From a bacterium (lineage in GTDB: Bacteria > Auribacterota > Erginobacteria > Erginobacterales > DAOSXE01), in NCBI GenBank assembly GCA_035380285.1, contig DAOSXE010000015.1, positions 1,927 through 65,926 on the forward strand: 64,000 nucleotides of DNA, written 5' to 3'. Below are positions 8,926 to 21,812 of this stretch, in pieces. Under the pieces are notes generated by a model. It was given only the letters and a program-made list of their open reading frames with translations, was not told the DNA's origin and ran no database searches. The stretch's first letter is position 1; each line of letters begins with the position of its first letter. Made by a program: the position numbers and the translations under genes.

Positions 8926-11019
8926 ATGACCAGAGAAATACCAATCGAAAAAGTCCGAAACATCGGGGTCATGGCCCACATCGACGCCGGGAAAACCACG
9001 GTGACGGAACGCATCCTTTTCTTCACCGGCCGCAGCCATAAGATCGGAGAGGTACACGACGGCGAAGCGACCATGGACTGGATGGTTCAGGAACAGGAAC
9101 GCGGGATCACCATCACCTCGGCGGCCACCACCGCCTTCTGGAAAGGCCATAGAATCAACATCATCGATACCCCGGGCCACGTCGACTTCACCGCGGAAGT
9201 CGAGCGTTCGCTCCGGGTCCTGGACGGGACCGTCGCTCTCTTCTGCGCGGTGGGCGGCGTCCAGCCCCAGTCGGAGACGGTATGGCGCCAGGCCGAGAAA
9301 TACATGGTCCCGCGTATCGCCTTCATCAACAAGATGGACCGGATCGGGGCCGATTTCGACGGCGTGGTGAAGGAAATCGAGGTGACCCTGGGGGCCAACC
9401 CGGTTCCGATCGTGATCCCGATCGGGGCGGGCGCGGAATTCGAAGGCGTCGTCGATCTGATCGAGATGAAGGCGATTTTCTACGACGAGGCGCCCGTCGG
9501 GGCGCGGATCCGGGAAGAAGCCGTTCCGGCCGAGCTCAGGGAAAGAGCGGAAGCCGCCCGGGAGTTTTTAGTCGAACGGGTCAGCGAACAGGACGACGCC
9601 CTCATGGAGAAATACGTGGGGGGACAGGAACCCTCCCGGGACGAACTGACGGCGGCCCTGCGCGGGGCCGTCATCCGCGGGGAGGTCATCCCGGTCCTCT
9701 GCGGCGCCGCGTTCAAGAATAAGGGCGTCCGCCGGCTGCTCGACGCCATCGTCGATCTTCTCCCCTCCCCCCTCGACCTGCCCCCGGCCATCGGCACCCG
9801 CAAGGAGGAGAACAAGGAGATCATCCGCCACCCTTCCGAGGACGCCCCGCTGGCCGCCCTGGCCTTCAAGATCATGGCCGACCGGCACCTGGGGAAACTG
9901 ACCTACCTGAGGGTCTACTCGGGGGTGCTCGCCAACGGGTCGTTCGTCTTCAACTCCAACCTGGAAACCAGGCAGCGGGTGGGGCGGATATTCCTCATGC
10001 ACGCCAACAAGCAGCAGGCGGTCGACAATTTGAGAGCCGGCGAGGTGGGGGCGGTGGTCGGCCTGGCCGAGACCAGGACCGGAGACACCGTCTGCGACGA
10101 GGCGCACCCCATCATCCTGGAAAATATCGATTTCCCCGCCCCGGTGATCGGGGTGGCCGTGGCCCCCGCCAGCCGGGCGGACCGGGATCGCCTGGCGGCG
10201 GCCCTGAGCCGCCTGGCCGACGAAGACCCCACCTTCACCGTCCGCACCGAAGAGGAGACGGGCGAAGTGATCATCTCGGGCATGGGCGAACTGCACCTCG
10301 AGGTCATCGTCGATCGGCTCAAGCGCGAATTCAACGTCGCGGTCGAAGTCGGGCAACCCCAGGTCGCCTACCGGGAGACGATCCTGGGGGATATCGAGCA
10401 CCGTTACCGCCACGTCAAGCAGACCGGAGGCCACGGCCAGTTCGCCGACATCATCTTCCGGATCGAGCCGGGCCAACCCGGCGAAGGCTTCCAGTTCTTC
10501 AACGAAATCCGGGGGGGGAACATACCCCGGGAATACATTCCTTCGATCGAACGCGGGGTGGTCGACGCCATGGCCCAGGGACCCTACGCCGGATTTCCCA
10601 TGGTCGACATCGTTTATACCGTCCTGGACGGATCGGCCCACGAAGTCGACTCCTCGGACATGGCCTTCCGCACCTGCGCCGCAGTCGGCTTCAAGGAAGC
10701 CTGCCGCAAGGCGGGCCTGCAGCTTCTGGAACCGATGATGAGCGTGGAGATCGTCACCCCCGAAGAATATATCGGCCCCCTGACCGGGAGCATCTGTTCC
10801 AAGCGGGGAAAGGTAACGAGCCTGATCCACAAGGCCACGCACTGCGTCCTCGCGGGCCAGGTGCCCCTGGCCAACATGTTCGGCTATTCCTCGGAACTGC
10901 GCACCATCACCAGCGGCCGCGGCGATTTTTCCATGCATTTCGAACACTACGCCGCCGTGCCCTTCTCCCTGGCGGAGGAGATCGTGGAACGACGGCGCCG
11001 GGAAGAGAAAATTCCCTGA
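8926..11019 (+). CDS. fusA: Translation elongation factor G
   Basis: [34 protein letters not shown] and a full-length EF-G layout. Start chosen at [12 protein letters not shown] (8926); the track ORF starts at 8869. Confidence 0.95.
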
Positions 11020-11088
11020 AGCGGCGGCCGCGAGGGGGCCCGGCGGAAAAAAACCGGCTCCCCGGGGGAGGGAACCGGTCGTGGAGCT
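10915..11088 (+). repeat. Direct repeat copy 1 (174 bp): authentic fusA 3' end + spacer + 7 nt matching the tRNA-Ala 3' end
   Basis: By base-by-base reading it is identical to 21573-21746. It covers the last 34 fusA codons plus stop, 62 nt of spacer and TGGAGCT. Confidence 0.9.
11047..11078 (-). terminator. Hairpin + T7 terminator copy inside repeat copy 1, positioned to terminate the island operon
   Basis: Same sequence as 21705-21736. On the minus strand CCGG..CTCCC-CCG-GGGAG-CCGG is followed by TTTTTTT. Confidence 0.4.
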
Positions 11089-11281: not shown

Positions 11282-12310
11282 CTACGGCACCATCCTCGCG
11301 AAGTAAGGGTAGAGACGAGAGTACCGCTCGTAGTTGCTCATCTTGGCGATACTAACTTCCTCCGAGTCATCACCCTCAGTTAGATACCCTAGAGCGGTAA
11401 CACATACTGTCCCGTCTCCCGTTTCGGTCGGCAGAATTTCTTCGAGCTTCAGACGCTCCTTCGTGCTCAGCACCGGAACATCGATCTCATCGATCAAGCC
11501 CGAAGCAGTCACATAGAGGGGGCTCGTAGCCTTAAAGTGACCAAGCAACGCATCTCGGTTATTCTCCGGACAGAACACCCCTGTTATGCTTAACATAATT
11601 GTACCATCCGAGTACTTTGCCACCTGTAGCGGAAGAAAAGTCTTCGGCTTACTGCAAGCGCTCTCCAGAACCGATAGCACCATATGACTGAGCAACCATG
11701 GGAAGTTCTCCTCTTTGAAGTTCTCCCATGTGAACAGGTCATGGTCATAGGATACTTCTGCGACTGTCATGGCCTTCAGGTAATCATCTCGAAACTCATT
11801 GAAATCTTTCTTCTTGTAGGACGGAAGTATCTGCTGATGGCGCCGAAGCTTGACCTCCCTATATACCGGGGTCTCCGCCATGAGCGTTACCCGCAGCACA
11901 CTCCATTCAAGAGCCTGACGTGCGATACCGGACACTTCTGTCAACTCTTGTCGCCCAGCATCAACGTAATCCACCCACACAATCGTTGGTTTTTCGCTGG
12001 GAAACAGCGTTGACAGGAATTCCTCAAACCGACAGGACAGAAGTTTCACTTTTTTTGAACACTGGTGGAATTTCTGTCGCCTGTACGTCTCACCATCACT
12101 CTCAACCGACACCATGTCAAGGTTCGGGAACACGTTGCTCAGCAACCTGAAGTCTTCAAGAAACGGACCTCCAAACCCGATATACAAATGCTCTTTCAAG
12201 CTATGTGTGAGTTCAAACGTACGCAGCAACTCGACCAAGACCAAGCGATCAATAGCCTTGTTGGATCGCAAATGATATGCTGGATGTTTTGGTTTTCTGA
12301 GCCAGGTCAT
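11282..12310 (-). CDS. Hypothetical protein, last gene of the island operon; N-terminus weakly Rossmann/methyltransferase-fold-like
   Basis: 342 aa. The start overlaps the upstream gene by 4 nt. The pattern LYIGFGGPF ... MVSVESD ... VKLLSCRFEEFL ... TIVWVDYVD resembles beta1-beta4 of a class I MTase fold. I recognise no catalytic motif. Confidence 0.5.
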   Translation of the reverse strand: MTWLRKPKHPAYHLRSNKAIDRLVLVELLRTFELTHSLKEHLYIGFGGPFLEDFRLLSNVFPNLDMVSVESDGETYRRQKFHQCSKKVKLLSCRFEEFLSTLFPSEKPTIVWVDYVDAGRQELTEVSGIARQALEWSVLRVTLMAETPVYREVKLRRHQQILPSYKKKDFNEFRDDYLKAMTVAEVSYDHDLFTWENFKEENFPWLLSHMVLSVLESACSKPKTFLPLQVAKYSDGTIMLSITGVFCPENNRDALLGHFKATSPLYVTASGLIDEIDVPVLSTKERLKLEEILPTETGDGTVCVTALGYLTEGDDSEEVSIAKMSNYERYSRLYPYFARMVP

Positions 12311-13740
12311 TCCCTCGCCTCCTCAAGGATCACGTCAAAGCACCTCGCCCCAACATTGGATGGATTTCTGTCGGGGCTATCAAAGATGTACTGTGAAACA
12401 CGACGCACATCCCTGACAGCACGGGTAAAGACTATTCGCTCCGTCGTCTTCTTCTTGTCCGGTCGCGGTAACACAGGTTTGTACTGTTTGCCTTTCACGG
12501 CACCGCGCGTCGCAGTCATGTGCAATTTCAATGCTCGAGTTCGAATCTCGTCAAGCGTCGCTTTGTGTGTTGATCTCATCTCACATCGAGACTTGGCAAC
12601 GAGATCCTTACCTTTCCATTGGTTAGTGTACTGAGTGAACATCTTTGTTCCCTCAATCATCTTGTCACGCACCTGCAGGTAAAGAGGAGATGAGGCCTCG
12701 ATCCCTCTTTTGGTTGTCGTCATAGGCAAGAGATTCGCGTCATCCGCACTGAATATGACAATCCCCGATATCGCAATGAATTGCATGTGGTATTGCGGCA
12801 CTCCCGAAACTCCCCACCCAGTCAAAGGCGTCTTGTCACAGTAAACTACAGTTCGGTCGTTGCAGATCACAGTCCACCCGGCCTCTGCAGAAGAATACCG
12901 CTCCTTGTAGTTCTCAAGGCCTTCGTCTGCCTCCTCTCGGCTGGGGATCGGGCTCGTGAAACCCACAACAAGGAACACATCAACCCCATCGTGTTTCCCT
13001 TCGTAGATAAAGGGCATTATCGGGTGCTTCGATCTCACCGCTTCCTCCGCGAATAGCAGGCTTATGCTCCTAGGAGTTACCGCCTTTCCGTTGATACGGA
13101 CTTCAAACCCCTTGCCAATGATGTACGCATAGTGCGTCGCTACGGCCTCACGAAACGCTCTCTCAAAGGCTCCGGATTCGAATTCCGTACGCACGGATGA
13201 GTAAATACTTCTGATTTCAAGTGTGGTACCAAGAGTTTCTGCTGGCTTGATCGCGACTACGGGAATCAACCAGTCATCCTCTTTTGATATCCACTGCGGT
13301 GATAGCCGCAAACGGTAAGAACCGTCCTTCGCATGTGTTCTGATTGTGCAGTCCGCTCCCATCTTGAAGATGGCGCGCTTCATCCCAATTCCATACGTAC
13401 CGATGGTTTTTTTCCCCTTGTCTATGTCCGCTTTAATCCGTCCCATGCGAAAGGCGTAGTCATGGTATCTCACCGGTATCCCCCCACAGTTGTCTTCAAT
13501 CCTGAAGCGCGTCCCGTCAAACTCAATACTTGCCCAATATCCCTCGTATGGGAGACGCCTAGAAAGTTGCCGTTTCGTTTCAGCCCGCTGAATACCATCT
13601 ACACAGTTATCCAGCAGATCCAGGATCGCATCCTGAAGCTCGATGTCCCTTGTTAGCATATGTACGAAAAACGACTTGACCGGATTGGCCGGAATGTGTG
13701 GGATCTTCCTAAGATGCATCTGAGTAACCTCCTTATTCAA
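12307..13740 (-). CDS. GHKL (Bergerat-fold) ATPase, MORC-like / HATPase_c_3 type
   Basis: N-box AILDLLDNCVDG, G1 box EDNCGGIP, G2 box IGTYGIGMKRAIF. 477 aa, with a ~220-aa uncharacterised C-terminal half. Confidence 0.75.
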   Translation of the reverse strand: MNKEVTQMHLRKIPHIPANPVKSFFVHMLTRDIELQDAILDLLDNCVDGIQRAETKRQLSRRLPYEGYWASIEFDGTRFRIEDNCGGIPVRYHDYAFRMGRIKADIDKGKKTIGTYGIGMKRAIFKMGADCTIRTHAKDGSYRLRLSPQWISKEDDWLIPVVAIKPAETLGTTLEIRSIYSSVRTEFESGAFERAFREAVATHYAYIIGKGFEVRINGKAVTPRSISLLFAEEAVRSKHPIMPFIYEGKHDGVDVFLVVGFTSPIPSREEADEGLENYKERYSSAEAGWTVICNDRTVVYCDKTPLTGWGVSGVPQYHMQFIAISGIVIFSADDANLLPMTTTKRGIEASSPLYLQVRDKMIEGTKMFTQYTNQWKGKDLVAKSRCEMRSTHKATLDEIRTRALKLHMTATRGAVKGKQYKPVLPRPDKKKTTERIVFTRAVRDVRRVSQYIFDSPDRNPSNVGARCFDVILEEARE

Positions 13741-14914: not shown

Positions 14915-15313
14915 TCACAGGCACTCCTCAAATCCATCTTCTGAAAGAATCGCTAGCCTTCCCCCTCTGCGAATCCAAGTGGCTATTCTCTTCACATCTC
15001 GGCCTTCACCAAACGCTGGGGTGCGCCTCCGAACGGCGCATTCCCAAATCACGAGAACACGCCAGCCCATATCTAGCAGTTTGCCTCGCACGCACAAATC
15101 TCGCAATCTGTTGCGTTTAATCTTCTTATTCCAAAACTGCTGATTGCTCTTTGCCTTCGGCCTTCGACCACATTCATGCCCATGCCAGTAGCATCCGTGG
15201 ACGAACACAACAGTCTTATGCCCGGCTAGAACAATGTCAGGTCGGCCCGGTAGATTCCTGGCGTGTAACCGATACCTAAAGCCTTCTCCAAACAGCGTCC
15301 TACGCACCTCCAT
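14915..15313 (-). CDS. vsr: Very-short-patch repair endonuclease (N-terminally short)
   Basis: GFRYRLHARNLPGRPDIVL...VFVHGCYWHGHEC...FWNKKIKRNRLRD...GWRVLVIWEC is the Vsr signature. It abuts the dcm start. Confidence 0.85.
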   Translation of the reverse strand: MEVRRTLFGEGFRYRLHARNLPGRPDIVLAGHKTVVFVHGCYWHGHECGRRPKAKSNQQFWNKKIKRNRLRDLCVRGKLLDMGWRVLVIWECAVRRRTPAFGEGRDVKRIATWIRRGGRLAILSEDGFEECL

Positions 15314-15386
15314 TTCCGGGCCTGTGTTTTTCCCCGATTCGCAGCCATGATCTTGTGCCGAGTCTCAGCATTTACTCGGTCCACCA

Positions 15387-15653
15387 TCAAGACTTCCCTG
15401 CCCTTTTGTCCCGTTGATGCACTTTGTTATGACAAACGATGCACAATGTCTTCAGGTTCCCTTCAATATTTACGCTGCCCTTCACGTGATGCTCGATGTG
15501 ATGCAACTCCAAGTGTCGCGGATCGAACGGGTTCCATTCGTCGTGCGCCCACGCGCAAAACCGGCACTTGTCCCCGTCGCGCCGAAGCAACGGAAGCAAG
15601 CCGAACACACAGTTCAATCGCTTGTCCGACATAGAGATGTGGGGCGACCGCAA
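15387..15653 (-). CDS. Small HNH endonuclease
   Basis: CRFCAW...LELHHIEHHVKG...NLKTLCIVCHNKVH (HNH/Zn-ribbon pattern). 88 aa. It overlaps the 3' end of the upstream gene by 40 nt, or 19 nt from the internal Met. Confidence 0.75.
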   Translation of the reverse strand: MRSPHISMSDKRLNCVFGLLPLLRRDGDKCRFCAWAHDEWNPFDPRHLELHHIEHHVKGSVNIEGNLKTLCIVCHNKVHQRDKRAGKS

Positions 15654-16720
15654 CCTGCAATCTCACCAACCGCCTGACCGACAACAGCGTATGTGTCATA
15701 GCTCGGTATCCGGAGCATTGGACCGGTGAAAGACGCACAAAGAAGAGGTACTCGTTCGCGTAGATGTGCAGACCCCAAATCTCCTCCGCCAATCTTCACA
15801 CCATGGTCAGCCACTACGAACACCCAATCGCCAGAACGAAGAAAATCCAAGAATGACTGTAGAAAAGCGTCAAACCGCTCAAGGGTTCGCCAGCACGCCG
15901 ATGCATCTCCCATGTGGGCATAACGGTCAAAATCCTCCAGATTGACCATGATAAATGCCTCGTCCTCCGCCGCTGTAACCTCTGCATTCAACAGCTCAAA
16001 GCACTGCTCGTCTCGCTCAGTTCGTACTGCCATATTCGCTGGCAAGGATAGGATTTCCTGCACCTTGCCGTTGACTATCCGTCTCCATCCAAGCGGCACG
16101 AATTTCTGCAGCAGAGACTCTCCATCGATCATCTGAAAGAAGTCACGCCGTAGTTCTTCAACCGGTTCTCCGCCACGCAACGGTCTTGCAAGCACCTTCT
16201 TCACGCATAACTCCGCTGATGCATCCAACATGCAGCGGAGTGCCTGTGCGACTTTATATAGACACTCACGGGGCACGACAATTTCATCTGCACTCACGAC
16301 CACAGTGCTGTCGAGCCCCCTATAGAGCATTATTGCCCCAGTTTGCAAATGTTCGAGCCACAACTCCGGGAGAACATCCCTGCCCCTTCCCTGTTTGTTG
16401 CCAATCAACTTAACTCCACAATTATTGCCAAGCTTCATCAGAACATCACGCGGTAGCGGTTCCGAGGGTATAGGGTGAGGTTGTTTAGTTATCCATCCGA
16501 ACATCTCGCGATGTCCTTCCTCCGATCCCACCGCGACTGACGCTTGTCTCATCACATGTCCACGACCCGTGACCGCAGCATCCAATCCCATATTAAAAAG
16601 GACTGGAAGAACGGAGATTTTGCGGCCGTACTGTTCGCACAGAGTCCCTAGGGTGCTGGTCTCACCGCCGTCAGGAGCAACTCCAAAACCATCTACAACG
16701 ATCACAAAAACGCGCGACAT
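15614..16720 (-). CDS. Phosphopentomutase (DeoB)-like metalloenzyme of the alkaline-phosphatase superfamily
   Basis: Blocks are collinear with E. coli DeoB as I recall it: RVFVIVVDGFGV (RAFIMVLDSFGIG), GHREMFG (SGHWEIAG), VLARPL (VIARPF), NLEDFDRYAHMGD (NFVDFDSSWGHRRD), VVADHG (LTADHG), HLRERVPLL (HTREHIPVL). Confidence 0.7.
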   Translation of the reverse strand: MSRVFVIVVDGFGVAPDGGETSTLGTLCEQYGRKISVLPVLFNMGLDAAVTGRGHVMRQASVAVGSEEGHREMFGWITKQPHPIPSEPLPRDVLMKLGNNCGVKLIGNKQGRGRDVLPELWLEHLQTGAIMLYRGLDSTVVVSADEIVVPRECLYKVAQALRCMLDASAELCVKKVLARPLRGGEPVEELRRDFFQMIDGESLLQKFVPLGWRRIVNGKVQEILSLPANMAVRTERDEQCFELLNAEVTAAEDEAFIMVNLEDFDRYAHMGDASACWRTLERFDAFLQSFLDFLRSGDWVFVVADHGVKIGGGDLGSAHLRERVPLLCASFTGPMLRIPSYDTYAVVGQAVGEIAGCGRPTSLCRTSD

Positions 16721-18534
16721 CAGGATTCAAATTTTCTGATTCGCAGGTTAACGAATTCAACAACTTTCCGCCAAAGACTGGCGATTGAAACTTTGCTGCC
16801 AAGCGAGAGTTCTCCTTCATACTGAAGAAGAAGAGGAATGATCGGTATAGTTACCTTTAGCTTGTCCGTAACAGAAATATCAGACTTCAGCACAGTGGAA
16901 GTAACGGAGACCCGTTCTGCGACCTTAGGCAAAATGGCTGAAGATTTTATGGTGTCACAGAGCGTCGCTAACACCTCTCTGGATTCTTCAAGCAGCGCTT
17001 TCATCTCCTCTGTTTCAGGCTCATGGTCCATCGCTGAGACGAATGACTCGACAACAACATCCCGGGCCGTTCTCGCCTCTGATACCGCCTCTGTAGCAGC
17101 GATCTTCCCTGCCATCTGAAGTTGTTCGTATTCCATGACAGACGCGACGACTCTGCCCCGTATCTCTAGGATATCTTCCTCAAGCCGCTGGATGCTTTTG
17201 GGTCGGTCCTCGACTCTCAGGGTATCTTCAGTGCGTTTGAGAAGGACGAAGTCCTTGCGTAGATTATCCCGAATATCTTCCAGCCTCTGTTTCTCTACCG
17301 GTATCCCGTTAGCCACTGTTTCGTCCTTCCTCTCTTCACAGGATCTGGGAACGCCGACGATTCTCCTCACATCGGTCAGAATATCCTTTGGGGCCGATGC
17401 CTCGGAGACAGCGCCAAGAATATGCACCAATGCTGTCACGCTCGAACGTATCCGCTCTGGGTCCGAAAGCAACCCGCGTCCCATTTGAATCATCACGTCC
17501 GCACCAAATGTCTCAACGTTCTGAAATATTTCTTCGAGGAAAATACTTCCCGAAGAAACAGCGAAGCATGGTCTGAGACCATACTGATCGCCCTGTAGCT
17601 TTTCGATTTCCTCCTTCAATATTGCTTGCTCATACGGAAAATCCTGGGTGAACGGCCCTGTGTAGACAGCATCTCCACCTGCAAGTCGCGAAAGTAGGGC
17701 AATTACCTGCTCCGCTAGGTAGTGCGTGCTCTTGCGCGTCAATACACCCCGGCCGATGTTGTTCACAACGAATGCTGTCTGACCATCACACGTATCGATC
17801 ACATGCCTGACAGCCGAAAAACCCATCGCGATACAGTTGAGGGTAAAACCACAAACGCCATGGCGCTGTCCATCCTCGACCAAGCGCAAGGATGTCTCCA
17901 CATCTGCGGTTGCATTCATGAAGTAGCCCAACTTGCGCCCCGTTTTCTCTTGGGCTGCAGTAACTACGGTTTCAATGGCCTGTGCGCGTTGTCCAAATGG
18001 ACTACAACTTGGGGACACGAGCAACTCGTCGTCAATCACGTAGTCAACACCACCCTCCAATGCTCTTTGCACTGTTGGGAGAATATCAGATAGACTCATG
18101 CGCAACCGCGGTTTCAGGATGAGCCCCAGAAGCGGCCGTTGGGAAACACCAAGAAGCTTCCTAATCCCTGATACACCATACCTTGGCCCCTTGTATTCAT
18201 CGAGGCAAACTTTGGGCAATGCCAGATCCACCACGGCAAATCGCTTCAGCGCTGAAAAGACAGAGCAATAGCACACACTCCCTAGGAGCATGGCGAGACC
18301 CGTACCAAGTCCAGCAGAACAAGGCGGCAGGGACAAAAGCACTTCAAGCTCGTTCTTGGATTGATCAATCTCACGAACATCGAGAATCTCTGGGTCTTCG
18401 TGAAATTCACAAGGCTCATCGGTACGTCGCAGCGGAATCGTTCCGGTGCTGCCTAGATCCATCGCAGCGAGGAGTTGCTTCAGCCCCTTCTCACGGTTTT
18501 CTAGGATCATGTGAAGTGTTACAGTTGCATGCAT
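16720..18534 (-). CDS. Divergent RuBisCO large-subunit-like protein (RLP) with ~240-aa C-terminal extension
   Basis: N-domain AAMDLGSTGT. Barrel blocks GPRYGVSGIRKLLGVSQRPLLGLILKPRL, GGVDYVIDDE, TGRKLGYFMNAT, LSRLAGGDAVYTG, AVSSGS, MIQMGRG are collinear with RuBisCO/RLP blocks. IDDE replaces KDDE. Confidence 0.75.
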   Translation of the reverse strand: MHATVTLHMILENREKGLKQLLAAMDLGSTGTIPLRRTDEPCEFHEDPEILDVREIDQSKNELEVLLSLPPCSAGLGTGLAMLLGSVCYCSVFSALKRFAVVDLALPKVCLDEYKGPRYGVSGIRKLLGVSQRPLLGLILKPRLRMSLSDILPTVQRALEGGVDYVIDDELLVSPSCSPFGQRAQAIETVVTAAQEKTGRKLGYFMNATADVETSLRLVEDGQRHGVCGFTLNCIAMGFSAVRHVIDTCDGQTAFVVNNIGRGVLTRKSTHYLAEQVIALLSRLAGGDAVYTGPFTQDFPYEQAILKEEIEKLQGDQYGLRPCFAVSSGSIFLEEIFQNVETFGADVMIQMGRGLLSDPERIRSSVTALVHILGAVSEASAPKDILTDVRRIVGVPRSCEERKDETVANGIPVEKQRLEDIRDNLRKDFVLLKRTEDTLRVEDRPKSIQRLEEDILEIRGRVVASVMEYEQLQMAGKIAATEAVSEARTARDVVVESFVSAMDHEPETEEMKALLEESREVLATLCDTIKSSAILPKVAERVSVTSTVLKSDISVTDKLKVTIPIIPLLLQYEGELSLGSKVSIASLWRKVVEFVNLRIRKFES

Positions 18535-18543
18535 AATCGATCC

Positions 18544-19113
18544 TTAGTGCTTAACGTCAATGACTTTGCCATCTACAAGAAAGGTTCCGCTCGTCAAGTG
18601 GTACACCTGCGGTATTGCACTTCTCAGTTTTATCTTATCCTCTGAGAACAATTCTTTATCGATATCTGCTGCAACGACCAATCCAACAACAACGTGGTGG
18701 TTTCCTGCCTCCTTGTGCCATTGCAGCTTACATTCCAGATTGACTGCACATTCTGCTATCCGCGCGGGCTTCACCTTGTTCCTCGCATATGGTGTCAATC
18801 CCGTTTCCTCAAACTCATCCACGGCCGGCGGATACTCGTTAGCAGCCTGGTAAAGTTGAGTCAGAATCTTGCTCGTAGGAATTCCTACCACAAACTCGCC
18901 GGTCTTTGAGATATTCTTGAAGGTGTCAGACTTTGGCGAGATACCAAGCGCAACCATCGGGGGGCACGTCGAACACGGCGTGAACATAGCGTAGGGTGCC
19001 AAGTTCTTAACCCCCGCTGTGTCGACCGTTGACACGAGTACAACAGGGGACGGCTGAACCAAGTAGACAACTTTTGCAACTTTGTCTAAGACCTCGATCT
19101 TCTGATACTTCAT
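18544..19113 (-). CDS. Flavin reductase-like (FMN-binding split-barrel) protein
   Basis: 189 aa. PSPVVLVSTVDTAGVKNLAPYAMFTPCSTCPPMVALGISPKSDTFKNISKTGEFVVGIP matches the flavin reductase-like domain pattern. Confidence 0.7.
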   Translation of the reverse strand: MKYQKIEVLDKVAKVVYLVQPSPVVLVSTVDTAGVKNLAPYAMFTPCSTCPPMVALGISPKSDTFKNISKTGEFVVGIPTSKILTQLYQAANEYPPAVDEFEETGLTPYARNKVKPARIAECAVNLECKLQWHKEAGNHHVVVGLVVAADIDKELFSEDKIKLRSAIPQVYHLTSGTFLVDGKVIDVKH

Positions 19114-21059
19114 CTTGTATCTCCTCTCATCTGATCTACCATTTCAACCAAATCCGCAAAAACAAGGTCTGGCCGGGAATCATGCGTGCGTCGAGCCACA
19201 TCTTCAGCAGTACTTATCCCTCCAAGAACAAGGCAAGCCAACGCTCCAGCCTTTCTGGCTGCTGCTATGTCAGTATCGAGCGAATCCCCAATTACGGCTA
19301 CCTCTTGCGGTTTCATACCCATAAGATGAAGTAGAAGGCGAAGCGAGAAGTCATTTGGTTTCCCCACGACAAAGGGCGATTTGCCAGTTACTGTTTCAAT
19401 TGCAGCCACAATCCAGCCAGTTCCGGGCTTGTCCATACCCGGAGCAGCGAACACACGATCCCGGTCCGTGCATACGAACTCCGCACCCTTCAAAATTGCT
19501 CGCTGGGCTGCCACTAGGTCGGCATATATGAAATCCTTTGAATAGCCAACGACAACTGCGTCAATGTAACCAGTGTGATCATTGGCGGCGATATCCATGC
19601 CACCGCAGGCGAGCAACTCAGGTAGTGCTGGTGCTCCACCCAGCACCAAGCAACACCTGTATCCCTTAGTGCGGCAATACTCGGCAGCGGCAATAGTGGA
19701 CGTCATGATATGCCGCGGGTCCGCTATCACGGCCATCTGGCCGAGTTTGTCTGCTAACTCCTGCTGCCTTCTTACGCTCGTGTTTGTCAAGAAGCCAACT
19801 GTAACGCCAGATTGTCGCAAAATGCGAATGGCCGCGAGGCTGGCTTCTATCGGCTTGTCTCCTTTATAGAGAACACCGTCGAGATCCAGCACAACTCCCC
19901 GTTTTGAAGCCAGATCCCGCAGCTTATCCGTGGACTTTACTGGCACCCTCGGATGGCGTGGCTCGCGTGGGCGTGAACATTGGATCGTATAGAGCGACCT
20001 CACGGCGGTATTCCAGGATAGCTTGTACTCTTCATGGCCGCGCATGAAATCAACTTCCTGTAGCCCGTTATCGCAAGCCCATCGAATCGCTTCACCCAAT
20101 AGCACTAGCCCCGGAGAACAATCGTCTAACGCCAAATCAAAGGATGTGTTCCAGTCATAGTATCTGCCACCACGGATGAAGCCCATCCGATAAGCAACTA
20201 TGTTGCCGTTCAGAAGCAGATGAAAAAGACAGAAATTCCCGGTTCCGGCGAAATCTTTCGCAACGTCATGAATGAAGCCTCTGCGCCTTGTGTCGGCAAA
20301 TGCTTGGACTCCGTGAATACTGTCCCAACGAGTATCATGGAGATCAAATAGACGTTCGAGGGTTTCATGGTCGTAATCCCGGACAACTTGGAGTTCTACC
20401 TTGCCGCGGCGGCGCAGAGCCCGCATCTTGCGGTTCAGCATTCGCCGCCGGTTTCTTGTCCGTGACTTAAGATACTTATCCCAAGAACAACCAAGTTCTA
20501 TATACGGCGCATCCTCTGCCCTGACAATAACCGGTGATAGACCGCAATCTTGAAGTGCACGTGTTACAATGTGCAAGGTGACGTCATCTTGCCGTATGTT
20601 TTGTAGCCTTATTTCATCCCATTCCAAATGGTCGCACATCGCGGCTGCGATGCGGTCGATAGGATCACATGCAAAGGCCGAGAAGACTCCGCCTAGGTAG
20701 TCACTACAACAATCAGAAAGAAGCGTAAGGATCGTATGGGATCCTACGCGTTTGCGCATCAGAGGCAGAATGGCAAGAACGTCATCTCCCAGCGCGGCCC
20801 AGAAGATGGACAATTCCCTGTCAGAACCGAAGTGGCCCCACCAGTACGAAAGCCAACGTGGATCAACCGAGACTGGAAGGTTAGGCTGTTTTTCAAGGAT
20901 CTTAACCCAGTGAGGGTAGATTGCGGACCACTCCTCATTGCTCCTCACAACACCGACCTGGGCCCTACGATAGTCGCGTTCCGTCGACATGTAGTTACGC
21001 AGGGAATATTGCCAACTTGTCTGTGATGCATCCAGCCAGCTATCGCTGCACATCATCAC
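19110..21059 (-). CDS. Fusion protein: GNAT-type (FemAB/CelD-like) acyltransferase + HAD-IIA (NagD-like) phosphatase
   Basis: The N-terminal ~360 aa end in VDFMRGHEEYKLSW (CelD/BioF2-like GNAT pattern). The C-terminal part has VVLDLDGVLYKG, FLTNTS, VGKPN and IGDSLDTDIAAARKAGA, which are HAD motifs I-IV of the IIA subclass. Confidence 0.7.
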   Translation of the reverse strand: MMMCSDSWLDASQTSWQYSLRNYMSTERDYRRAQVGVVRSNEEWSAIYPHWVKILEKQPNLPVSVDPRWLSYWWGHFGSDRELSIFWAALGDDVLAILPLMRKRVGSHTILTLLSDCCSDYLGGVFSAFACDPIDRIAAAMCDHLEWDEIRLQNIRQDDVTLHIVTRALQDCGLSPVIVRAEDAPYIELGCSWDKYLKSRTRNRRRMLNRKMRALRRRGKVELQVVRDYDHETLERLFDLHDTRWDSIHGVQAFADTRRRGFIHDVAKDFAGTGNFCLFHLLLNGNIVAYRMGFIRGGRYYDWNTSFDLALDDCSPGLVLLGEAIRWACDNGLQEVDFMRGHEEYKLSWNTAVRSLYTIQCSRPREPRHPRVPVKSTDKLRDLASKRGVVLDLDGVLYKGDKPIEASLAAIRILRQSGVTVGFLTNTSVRRQQELADKLGQMAVIADPRHIMTSTIAAAEYCRTKGYRCCLVLGGAPALPELLACGGMDIAANDHTGYIDAVVVGYSKDFIYADLVAAQRAILKGAEFVCTDRDRVFAAPGMDKPGTGWIVAAIETVTGKSPFVVGKPNDFSLRLLLHLMGMKPQEVAVIGDSLDTDIAAARKAGALACLVLGGISTAEDVARRTHDSRPDLVFADLVEMVDQMRGDTR

Positions 21060-21572: not shown

Positions 21573-21677
21573 GGCCGCGGCGATTTTTCCATGCATTTCG
21601 AACACTACGCCGCCGTGCCCTTCTCCCTGGCGGAGGAGATCGTGGAACGACGGCGCCGGGAAGAGAAAATTCCCTGA
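21573..21677 (+). pseudogene. Orphan 3' fragment of fusA (last 34 codons + stop) inside repeat copy 2
   Basis: It encodes [34 protein letters not shown]. The upstream sequence in the same frame has no resemblance to EF-G. Confidence 0.85.
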
Positions 21678-21704
21678 AGCGGCGGCCGCGAGGGGGCCCG
21701 GCGG

Positions 21705-21736
21705 AAAAAAACCGGCTCCCCGGGGGAGGGAACCGG
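21705..21736 (-). terminator. Rho-independent terminator candidate downstream of tRNA-Ala
   Basis: On the minus strand a hairpin (outer CCGG/CCGG, inner CTCCC-CCG-GGGAG) is followed by T7 (plus-strand A-run 21705-21711). It starts 4 nt after the tRNA 3' end. Confidence 0.45.
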
Positions 21737-21739
21737 TCG

Positions 21740-21812
21740 TGGAGCTGAGGGGATTCGAACCCCTGACCCCATGGCTGCCAGCCATGTGCTCTCCCAGCTG
21801 AGCTACAGCCCC
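21740..21812 (-). tRNA. tRNA-Ala (anticodon GGC)
   Basis: A 73-nt cloverleaf folded by hand: acceptor GGGGCUG/CAGCUCC with the G3:U70 alanine identity pair, D-arm GCUC-AGCUGGGA-GAGC, anticodon loop CU-GGC-AG, T-arm AGGGG-UUCGAAU-CCCCU, A73. No CCA is encoded. Confidence 0.95.

Follow-up and report, generated by a model that had tools for sequence, protein, structure and literature searches.

A conserved pairing of a prokaryotic MORC ATPase with a methyltransferase-fold protein beside DNA methylases: a candidate methylation-keyed defence cassette without a recognisable nuclease

Prokaryotic MORC ATPases were predicted in 2008 to play a restriction-like role, on the assumption that they work with nuclease and helicase partners (Iyer 2008, PMC2292703). 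The MORC and paraMORC restriction-modification (R-M) systems described in that study contain a GHKL ATPase with an S5 domain and a signature motif, are linked to C5 methylases and Vsr, and occur sporadically as laterally mobile units; in a minority of the MORC neighbourhoods, methylases were present without a helicase. Here, we analyse a cassette with these features on the minus strand of a 64,000-nt bacterial stretch (the window, by which we mean the whole stretch), in which a C5 cytosine methyltransferase gene (dcm) is followed by the two focal genes (11282–13740), encoding a MORC-type ATPase and a 342-amino-acid (aa) protein of the Pfam family PF20553. Unlike the systems of Iyer 2008, which are defined by helicase and endonuclease partners, the window cassette has neither; its sole constant partner is the PF20553 protein, which is unmentioned in PMC2292703, and its ATPase carries Asp rather than Glu at the catalytic position. 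From the genes present, the folds and conserved motifs of their products, and the synteny, co-evolution and genomic contexts of the pair, we tentatively read the cassette as a methylation-keyed defence module without a recognisable nuclease, in which the MORC–partner unit would be the restriction half and the outcome a block rather than cleavage; we rate this reading as a nearly balanced call that falls just on the doubtful side.

Several other described systems resemble parts of the cassette. The triad of a C5 methylase, HEF_HK (HATPase_c_3) and Response_reg_2 likewise joins a methylase to a paraMORC-like GHKL protein and a small partner (Bellieny-Rabelo 2021, PMC8011034), is found in R-M-rich regions, as are the relatives of the window cassette, and is placed with systems of unknown role, under the name 'Kinase-methylase', in a supplementary table of PMC9122126; neither of the triad's Pfam families, however, matches the window proteins. 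Class-1 DISARM (DrmD, DrmMI, DrmA, DrmB, DrmC) is also a methylation-based defence and its nuclease is dispensable, but the window is without Drm genes: the island that holds the cassette contains no DrmA, DrmB, DrmD or DrmMI, and PADLOC returned only generic C5-methylase matches. BREX offers a precedent for a methylase-keyed block to phage DNA that uses no recognisable restriction nuclease. Its components PglX, PglZ, BrxC and BrxL are nevertheless unrelated to the cassette proteins, and the sole PADLOC match to a BREX model was a weak PglX hit from the DrmMI methylase of a related locus (L106), with none from MORC or its partner. Eukaryotic MORC2, MORC3 and SMCHD1, which act alongside cytosine methylation to silence invading elements, share the GHKL–S5 module and the signature motif, whereas the prokaryotic protein has no CW, coiled-coil or hinge domain, and its tail and partner are unrelated to eukaryotic cofactors. 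A GHKL–S5 ATPase beside Dcm and Vsr also recalls MutL–Vsr very-short-patch repair. Finally, GHKL ATPases occur in validated or candidate anti-phage systems, namely VcSduA (Shedu type I-D, paraMORC3) and MzaB of the MZA system; VcSduA differs in having a DUF4263 PD-(D/E)xK nuclease, and MzaB was matched only at E=0.004 by the window ATPase and at E=0.001 by its homologue in the Pseudomonas filamentous phage PfAC20, far under the MzaB family cut-off. The cassette differs from every described system that we found in its obligate PF20553 partner, in having no helicase or nuclease, and in existing both as a stand-alone cassette and as a DISARM insert.

The pairing itself is the firmest of our observations. 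Scanning one genome per species across 185,579 genomes yielded 229 places, and locus counts out of 80 refer throughout to the best 80 of these. The MORC gene lies directly upstream of the partner gene on the same strand in 80 of 80 genome loci, in 36 of 37 viral contigs from IMG/VR (35 of which also have Dcm) and in 77 of the best 80 among 247 relatives from a metagenome scan with a DISARM-type subfamily. Because it recurs in so many independent loci, the adjacency is not chance, and the suggested check of whether the pair stays together in other genomes came out positive wherever we looked. A C5 methylase is present in 73 of the 80 loci, of which 62 have it as the same-strand gene directly before the pair and four have it convergent on the downstream side, while in the seven loci with no visible Dcm the flanks end at a contig edge or are too short. 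The pair always adjoins a DNA methylase, usually of the C5 type, with or without Vsr or a glycosylase. Pairwise identities of MORC and partner correlate at rho 0.89, against about 0.25 for either protein with Dcm, so that MORC and partner co-evolve tightly and Dcm is only loosely coupled to them. About 52 of 68 Dcms form one clade, in which conservation of the target-recognition region equals that of the catalytic core; the other 16 or so have a different target-recognition domain and include all glycosylase-bearing loci with an alignable full triple. One close relative of the window pair (L007; MORC E=1e-193, partner 49% identical) carries such a different domain. Since close pairs carry different Dcms, with at least two target-recognition-domain clades as well as DrmMI among them, we rule out a single target sequence for the pair, which is not tied to one recognition sequence.

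Integrase genes and R-M genes of types I and IIG are over-represented in the flanks of the loci, and clustering of the remaining flanking open reading frames (ORFs) returned only integrases, scattered R-M genes and an EndoIII-like HhH-GPD glycosylase (8 of 80 loci). Individual loci vary. In Dehalococcoidia (L047, 9488–11747), a second, divergent MORC–PF20553 pair lies in opposite orientation directly after the Vsr gene of the first cassette, beside transposase genes. In Asticcacaulis (L075, 5009–6331) and Massilia (L079, 5364–6377), the pair stands beside a complete type II system with C5 methylase and Vsr, the endonuclease being MvaI/BcnI-like in the former and NotI-like in the latter. On the S. 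meliloti plasmid pSymA KH46 (L087, 5932–11077), an IS66 insertion interrupts the PF20553 gene beside an intact MORC gene, and no methylase was seen nearby, which looks like a decaying copy.

The first-pass annotation of this DNA had linked the ATPase to defence from proposals of comparative genomics, and the genomic contexts strengthen that link. The pair 'ATP-binding protein | O-methyltransferase' is carried by 222 of 5,426 complete Escherichia coli genomes (~4%), and both of the genomes we inspected have it, together with a convergent dcm, in a P2-like prophage, flanked by gpQ, which encodes the portal, and the replication gene gpA. This cos-proximal gpA–gpQ region was described as a defence hotspot, also holding old and tin, by Rousset et al. 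(PMC9122126), whose Table S5 lists the same arrangement (WP_029401229, WP_029401228 and WP_029401227); strain 7/2 is one carrier of this P2 cassette (NZ_CP023820, 2425283–2428798). The E. coli MORC and partner are 42% and 26% identical, respectively, to the window proteins. In both of the inspected P2-like prophages (L088, 15778–17829; L089, 8278–10329), the adjacent replication endonuclease gene is an annotated pseudogene lacking its C-terminus, and the prophages may be defective. Among the viral contigs, the cassette sits between P2-type portal and gpA in 21, with the large terminase visible in 20 of these. The phage PfAC20 carries MORC, partner and C5 methylase at its accessory end, a locus that the paper describing this phage scored as an 'incomplete' system with a lone methylase.

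A further context is class-1 DISARM itself. In a Microvirga plasmid and a viral contig, the pair is inserted between DrmMI and DrmA, and among the best 80 metagenome relatives of this subfamily the next gene downstream is DrmA in 62 and the gene just before the pair is DrmMI in 50, numbers that are limited by contig ends. About nine loci of the subfamily have Dcm and/or Vsr and no Drm genes, and one further locus has Dcm together with DrmMI. Many class-1 DISARM operons among these loci (L127–L206, L085, L106) have seven genes and read DrmD-DrmMI-MORC-PF20553-DrmA-DrmB-DrmC, Microvirga terrae pR24_2 being an example, and in the DISARM gene lists that we compared, a part of the published descriptions, which give five genes, sometimes DrmMII and unspecified 'auxiliary genes', the pair is not named. 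The two-gene unit can thus dock onto an unrelated N6-adenine methylase. We found no paper naming or testing the MORC–PF20553 cassette, and none on bacterial MORCs in a phage context.

Because the cassette occupies defence hotspots of phages and is also built into DISARM operons, a defence role is probable. The same arrangement could also arise if the pair were a helper of methylation, loading, stimulating or targeting the adjacent methylase, with an anti-restriction benefit for P2 and Pf phages and protection from autoimmunity in DISARM. The position of the pair directly after the methylase gene whatever the methylase type, the lack of a nuclease and the abundance of orphan methylases in phages all speak for such a helper, as does the finding that the methylases of a Serratia class-1 DISARM, on their own, methylate less completely than the full operon does (bioRxiv 10.1101/2021.12.28.474362). 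We nonetheless consider it unlikely: two additional genes (~2.4 kb) are a costly load for P2, whose genome is limited in size, orphan methylases of phages mostly work without a helper, defence genes dominate the P2 hotspot, and the partner retains the motifs of an S-adenosylmethionine (SAM) site, which would be superfluous in a passive loader.

The ATPase is a genuine prokaryotic MORC, apart from one Glu-to-Asp change. It had been annotated as a MORC-like GHKL protein from three boxes, DLLDNCVDG, EDNCGGIP and GTYGIGMKRA, all of which lie within the 477-aa translation and inside a Pfam HATPase_c_3 match (E=1.9e-11); the assignment proves stronger than was claimed, with the MORC-defining S5 motif present as well. 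Single-protein sequence searches of the PDB with either protein of the pair gave nothing useful. When a profile of 100 ATPase homologues was compared with the PDB, MORC3 and MORC4 were the only significant sequences, in alignments of 280–311 residues that span the GHKL domain and the S5 transducer, and the best structural matches were MORC3, SMCHD1 and MORC2. All four ATP-binding motifs of GHKL proteins are present, and the N-box LDLLDNCVDG, G1 DNCGGI and G2 GTYGIGMKR are invariant in all contexts examined. The family consensus GWTVxCNDRAV fits every position of the S5 signature GhXhhpXXRhl that Iyer 2008 (PMC2292703) gave as MORC-defining; in the window protein it reads GWTVICNDRTV, where T occupies one 'h' position. 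An S5-fold domain with its conserved basic residue is present, and the TTTK(R) lysine loop is found in the family. The departure from MORC lies in the N-box, where the catalytic Glu four residues before the Mg-binding Asn is an invariant Asp in all members examined. The C-terminal ~130 residues match nothing in the PDB and contain no acidic or histidine residue that is invariant; the basic patch of this tail has a median charge of +7 across 40 residues.

Gene boundaries within the operon required correction. The longest ORF of the ATPase runs from a TTG at 13740 to 12307 and encodes 477 aa, and it was this reading that gave the 8-nt overlap with dcm reported earlier. Because a perfect AAGGAGG Shine-Dalgarno sequence lies 7 nt before the ATG at 13719 and homologues are 466–475 aa long, the true start is almost certainly this ATG, giving 470 aa; the overlap is therefore spurious and is replaced by a 13-nt spacer with a ribosome-binding site. 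The 4-nt overlap with the partner gene (ATGA), by contrast, is real and recurs in 56 of 80 related loci.

The partner, whose N-terminus had been thought to look weakly like a Rossmann or methyltransferase fold, is indeed of that kind, as judged by its family match, predicted fold and solved neighbours. It matches PF20553, a 'putative O-methyltransferase' family, at E=2.4e-53 (181.9 bits against a gathering cut-off of 27) over the full length of the profile (positions 5–307 of 309), and its start is backed by homologues of 340–346 aa that cover 100% of the protein. The predicted structure is confident (predicted local distance difference test, pLDDT, 92.7; predicted template-modelling score, pTM, 0.90) and has the seven-stranded Rossmann-like fold of class-I SAM-methyltransferases. 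Among solved structures, its nearest folds are those of tRNA and rRNA methyltransferases (Trm1, RsmD-like and RlmI-like), and for this reason the partner does not belong to a family unrelated to nucleic acids, the outcome that would have spoken against the original proposal. In motif I, Y43-x-G45-x-G47 is invariant, as is D114 in the W112-x-D114-Y element after beta-4, while the acidic residue E70 that ends beta-2 is conserved at 90% or more, down to 23% identity; an N-terminal YxLRxNKxxxR helix, Y233-x-D235 and a C-terminal PxLSxKER are kept over the same range. Because these motifs survive to such low identity, the conservation pattern points to an enzyme or, at minimum, a conserved SAM pocket. 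At 50% identity, PF20553 relatives with E up to 0.001 fall into 2,056 clusters, and the 150 best representatives are all single-domain proteins of 240–381 aa, with no domain fusions. A search of a viral structure library with the partner returned only generic methyltransferases (TM ~0.4), and the sole match of its profile to PDB sequences was judged to be chance.

Given its nearest folds and its conserved SAM-site motifs, the partner might alternatively act in abortive infection, as a toxic methyltransferase of tRNA or rRNA or as a sensor of SAM depletion or of methylase inhibition by phage proteins, with MORC as the switch and the methylase as the guarded component instead of a self-marker; that different methylase types accompany the pair would suit a guard. 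We consider this highly unlikely, and continue with the nuclease-free, methylation-keyed module as the preferred reading.

Dcm motifs are readable in the translation (FCGVGG, PPCQ, ENV, LQGFP and GNS), and the protein matches PDB 3G7U over its full length (E=1.5e-113). The entry 3G7U is a solved, apparently uncharacterised cytosine methyltransferase, and a structure of this methylase clade thus exists. The open part of vsr (14915–15313) encodes 132 aa, whereas the first 20 codons begin at about 15386 in another frame, and the Vsr Pfam and TIGR00632 matches accordingly lack the N-terminal 25–27 profile positions. Three-frame translation of the 5' region (15313–15387) gives MVDRVNAETRHKIMAANRGK in one frame and NTGPEMEVRR in the next. 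The frameshift site is an A5 run, and A6 would restore the frame; because A5 is present in four independent assemblies and A6 in none, this is not a one-off assembly error. The interrupted gene appears to be a real pseudogene, a source of truncated Vsr or a slippage site, and a truncated product from an internal ATG is possible.

Across the 80 loci, Vsr accompanies the cassette in 40 and the EndoIII-like HhH-GPD glycosylase in eight. Because a deamination-repair gene of one or the other type travels with the cassette, the methylase appears to be active in vivo. The glycosylase beside the cassette, with its Fe-S motif, occurs in L007, L037, L041, L042, L057, L064, L070 and L073; among these, L064 alone carries a Dcm whose target-recognition domain belongs to the same clade as that of the window, a pattern that suggests two alternative repair routes for deaminated 5-methylcytosine (5mC). 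These repair genes raise another explanation, in which the pair would be a repair accessory, a MutL-like matchmaker and its cofactor stimulating Vsr or the glycosylase at T:G mismatches left by 5mC deamination. E. coli MutL stimulates Vsr, which provides a parallel. Set against it, Vsr and glycosylase are absent from the two E. coli P2 loci inspected and from all 21 viral P2-hotspot loci, most DISARM-type loci have an N6-adenine methylase and hence no deamination problem, and in the window vsr is frameshifted while the pair is intact. We hold a repair role to be the least probable of the explanations considered here.

Searches for a nuclease bear directly on the preferred reading of a nuclease-free defence module. 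The first-pass annotation saw no nuclease motif in the partner, and we agree, having found neither the family nor the fold of a nuclease there; more generally, family models and structural matches recognised no nuclease domain in MORC or partner, and the neighbours of the cassette include no conserved nuclease gene of the sort that a type II R-M system has next to its methylase. In PADLOC-DB v2, no partner protein and none of the window, E. coli and Microvirga versions of MORC gave a match, the MzaB match of the PfAC20 MORC being the only one, and NCBIfam assigned neither protein of the pair. The 88-aa HNH protein, proposed earlier as a candidate nuclease partner, fares poorly in this role: an HNH homologue occurs near the cassette in one of 80 loci, the best family matches are the HNH regions of IscB and ZorE, and its ORF overlaps the 3' end of a phosphopentomutase-like gene by 40 nt. 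It is probably an island neighbour and not part of the module.

Conventional restriction, with the complex recognising unmethylated sites, could still operate through a nuclease hidden in the S5 domain, the tail or the variable insertion of the partner, or through a recruited host nuclease, here possibly the HNH protein, whose gene lies ~1.6 kb upstream of the window MORC gene. In the study of Iyer 2008 (PMC2292703), nucleases and helicases accompanied most MORC and paraMORC genes, and the S5 domain has conserved polar clusters (CNDR, YHxQF and D295). The tail offers no invariant acidic or histidine candidates, and we regard a conventional restriction mechanism as distinctly unlikely.

Returning to a methylation-keyed module that blocks without cutting, we favour this reading because a methylase of either chemistry is followed by the pair, the unit is mobile on phages and islands, a deamination-repair gene is frequent and no nuclease is recognised. 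In such a module, Dcm would place 5mC on resident DNA as the self mark, and Vsr, frameshifted here, would normally repair the T:G mismatches that arise from 5mC deamination. MORC and its PF20553 partner, produced by coupled translation, would form one unit beside the methylase, and the methylase or its methyl mark would allow this unit to recognise self DNA. Where the mark is absent, the MORC dimer would close on ATP and clamp the duplex through its GHKL–S5 core and basic C-terminal patch, and the partner, with its predicted SAM-binding site, would act on the clamped nucleic acid through base-flipping and/or methyl transfer, so that replication or expression of the foreign DNA would be blocked without cleavage. 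Type III systems are the model here for target or mark recognition by the methylase, and MORCs, MutL and GyrB are the model for an ATPase that serves as an ATP-driven DNA clamp. Catalysis or base probing would fall to the partner, and foreign DNA would be blocked, much as is believed of BREX and, in part, of DISARM. We infer complex formation, a defence phenotype, a DNA substrate, catalysis by the partner and the non-nucleolytic outcome from sequence, predicted structure and context.

Several points weigh against this proposal. ATP turnover may be slow or absent, because an Asp in the N-box replaces the catalytic Glu of MORC, MutL and GyrB. The substrate of the partner could be RNA, protein or a small molecule, 'O-methyltransferase' being a database label, and a novel nuclease site in the MORC tail or the partner insertion, of a kind beyond homology methods, is possible. 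The P2 hotspot also holds non-defence cargo, and the evaluated-systems table of the same study has no HATPase or DNA_methylase entry, so that the cassette was listed there but not assayed (PMC9122126). DISARM operons already have helicase and phospholipase-D (PLD) effectors, and the pair could be a regulator in them; at L075 and L079 it neighbours a type II R-M system with its own nuclease. A bolder form of the proposal holds that a methylase-guided MORC clamp, with a SAM-dependent methyltransferase-fold enzyme, silences or chemically marks unmethylated invading DNA while leaving it uncut. The cassette would then be a forerunner of eukaryotic MORC-plus-cytosine-methylation silencing, would contain the first methyltransferase defence effector and would be an unrecognised functional part of many class-1 DISARM systems; we state this version as an improbable one.

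The cassette of the window lies in a low-GC island (Table 1) spanning ~11.1–21.6 kb, with a GC content of 0.50–0.53, rising to 0.55 at the right-hand end, compared with ~0.65 outside. The bracketed island measures ~10.7 kb, and its repeat links the 3' end of an EF-G-like gene to that of tRNA-Ala: the left copy comprises the final ~105 nt of the EF-G-like gene and the hairpin downstream of it. The nine island genes, all on the minus strand and tightly packed, encode a GNAT+HAD fusion, a flavin reductase, a RuBisCO-like protein, a phosphopentomutase-like protein, the 88-aa HNH protein, Vsr, Dcm, the GHKL ATPase and the 342-aa protein; no integrase was found among them. Four independent assemblies carry the same island. 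The upstream cargo (15614–21059) is co-oriented and overlapping, and consists of the RuBisCO-like protein, the phosphopentomutase-like metalloenzyme, the flavin reductase and the GNAT(FemAB-like)+HAD fusion; the RuBisCO-like protein has 604 aa, including an additional ~210-aa C-terminal region. These four genes were ruled out as members of the module, as they occur in none of the 80 loci.

Table 1 Positions of the cassette genes and island features within the window
Feature	Coordinates	Strand	Remarks
Direct repeat, left copy, 174 nt	10915..11088		100% identical to 21573-21746; bounds the low-GC island
Terminator-like hairpin	11052..11080	-	12-bp stem with 7 GC pairs, then a T-run; ~200 nt past the last gene of the operon
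PF20553 (Methyltransf_35) protein, 342 aa	11282..12310	-	Class-I SAM-methyltransferase fold; obligate partner of the MORC ATPase
Prokaryotic MORC-type GHKL ATPase, 470 aa	12307..13719	-	GHKL, S5 transducer and family-specific ~130-aa tail with basic patch
C5 DNA cytosine methyltransferase (Dcm), 393 aa	13733..14914	-	PF00145 E=7.8e-56; TIGR00675; presumed self mark
vsr (T:G mismatch endonuclease)	14915..15387	-	Split by a -1 frameshift
88-aa HNH protein	15387..15653	-	PF01844 E=3.4e-6
Direct repeat, right copy, 174 nt	21573..21746		8-nt overlap with the 3' end of tRNA-Ala(GGC), 21739-21812

For annotation, these results mean that an 'ATP-binding protein' and an 'O-methyltransferase' found by an apparently orphan dcm belong together. 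Relative to the systems predicted in 2008, the cassette is a minimal form, a methylase with a MORC and a methyltransferase-fold protein and free of any recognised nuclease, and its E. coli version is located in the experimentally tractable P2 hotspot. If the cassette defends, it would add a non-nucleolytic, methylation-keyed mechanism, account for two unannotated genes of many class-1 DISARM operons, and provide a bacterial model of MORC ATPases reading the methylation state of DNA.

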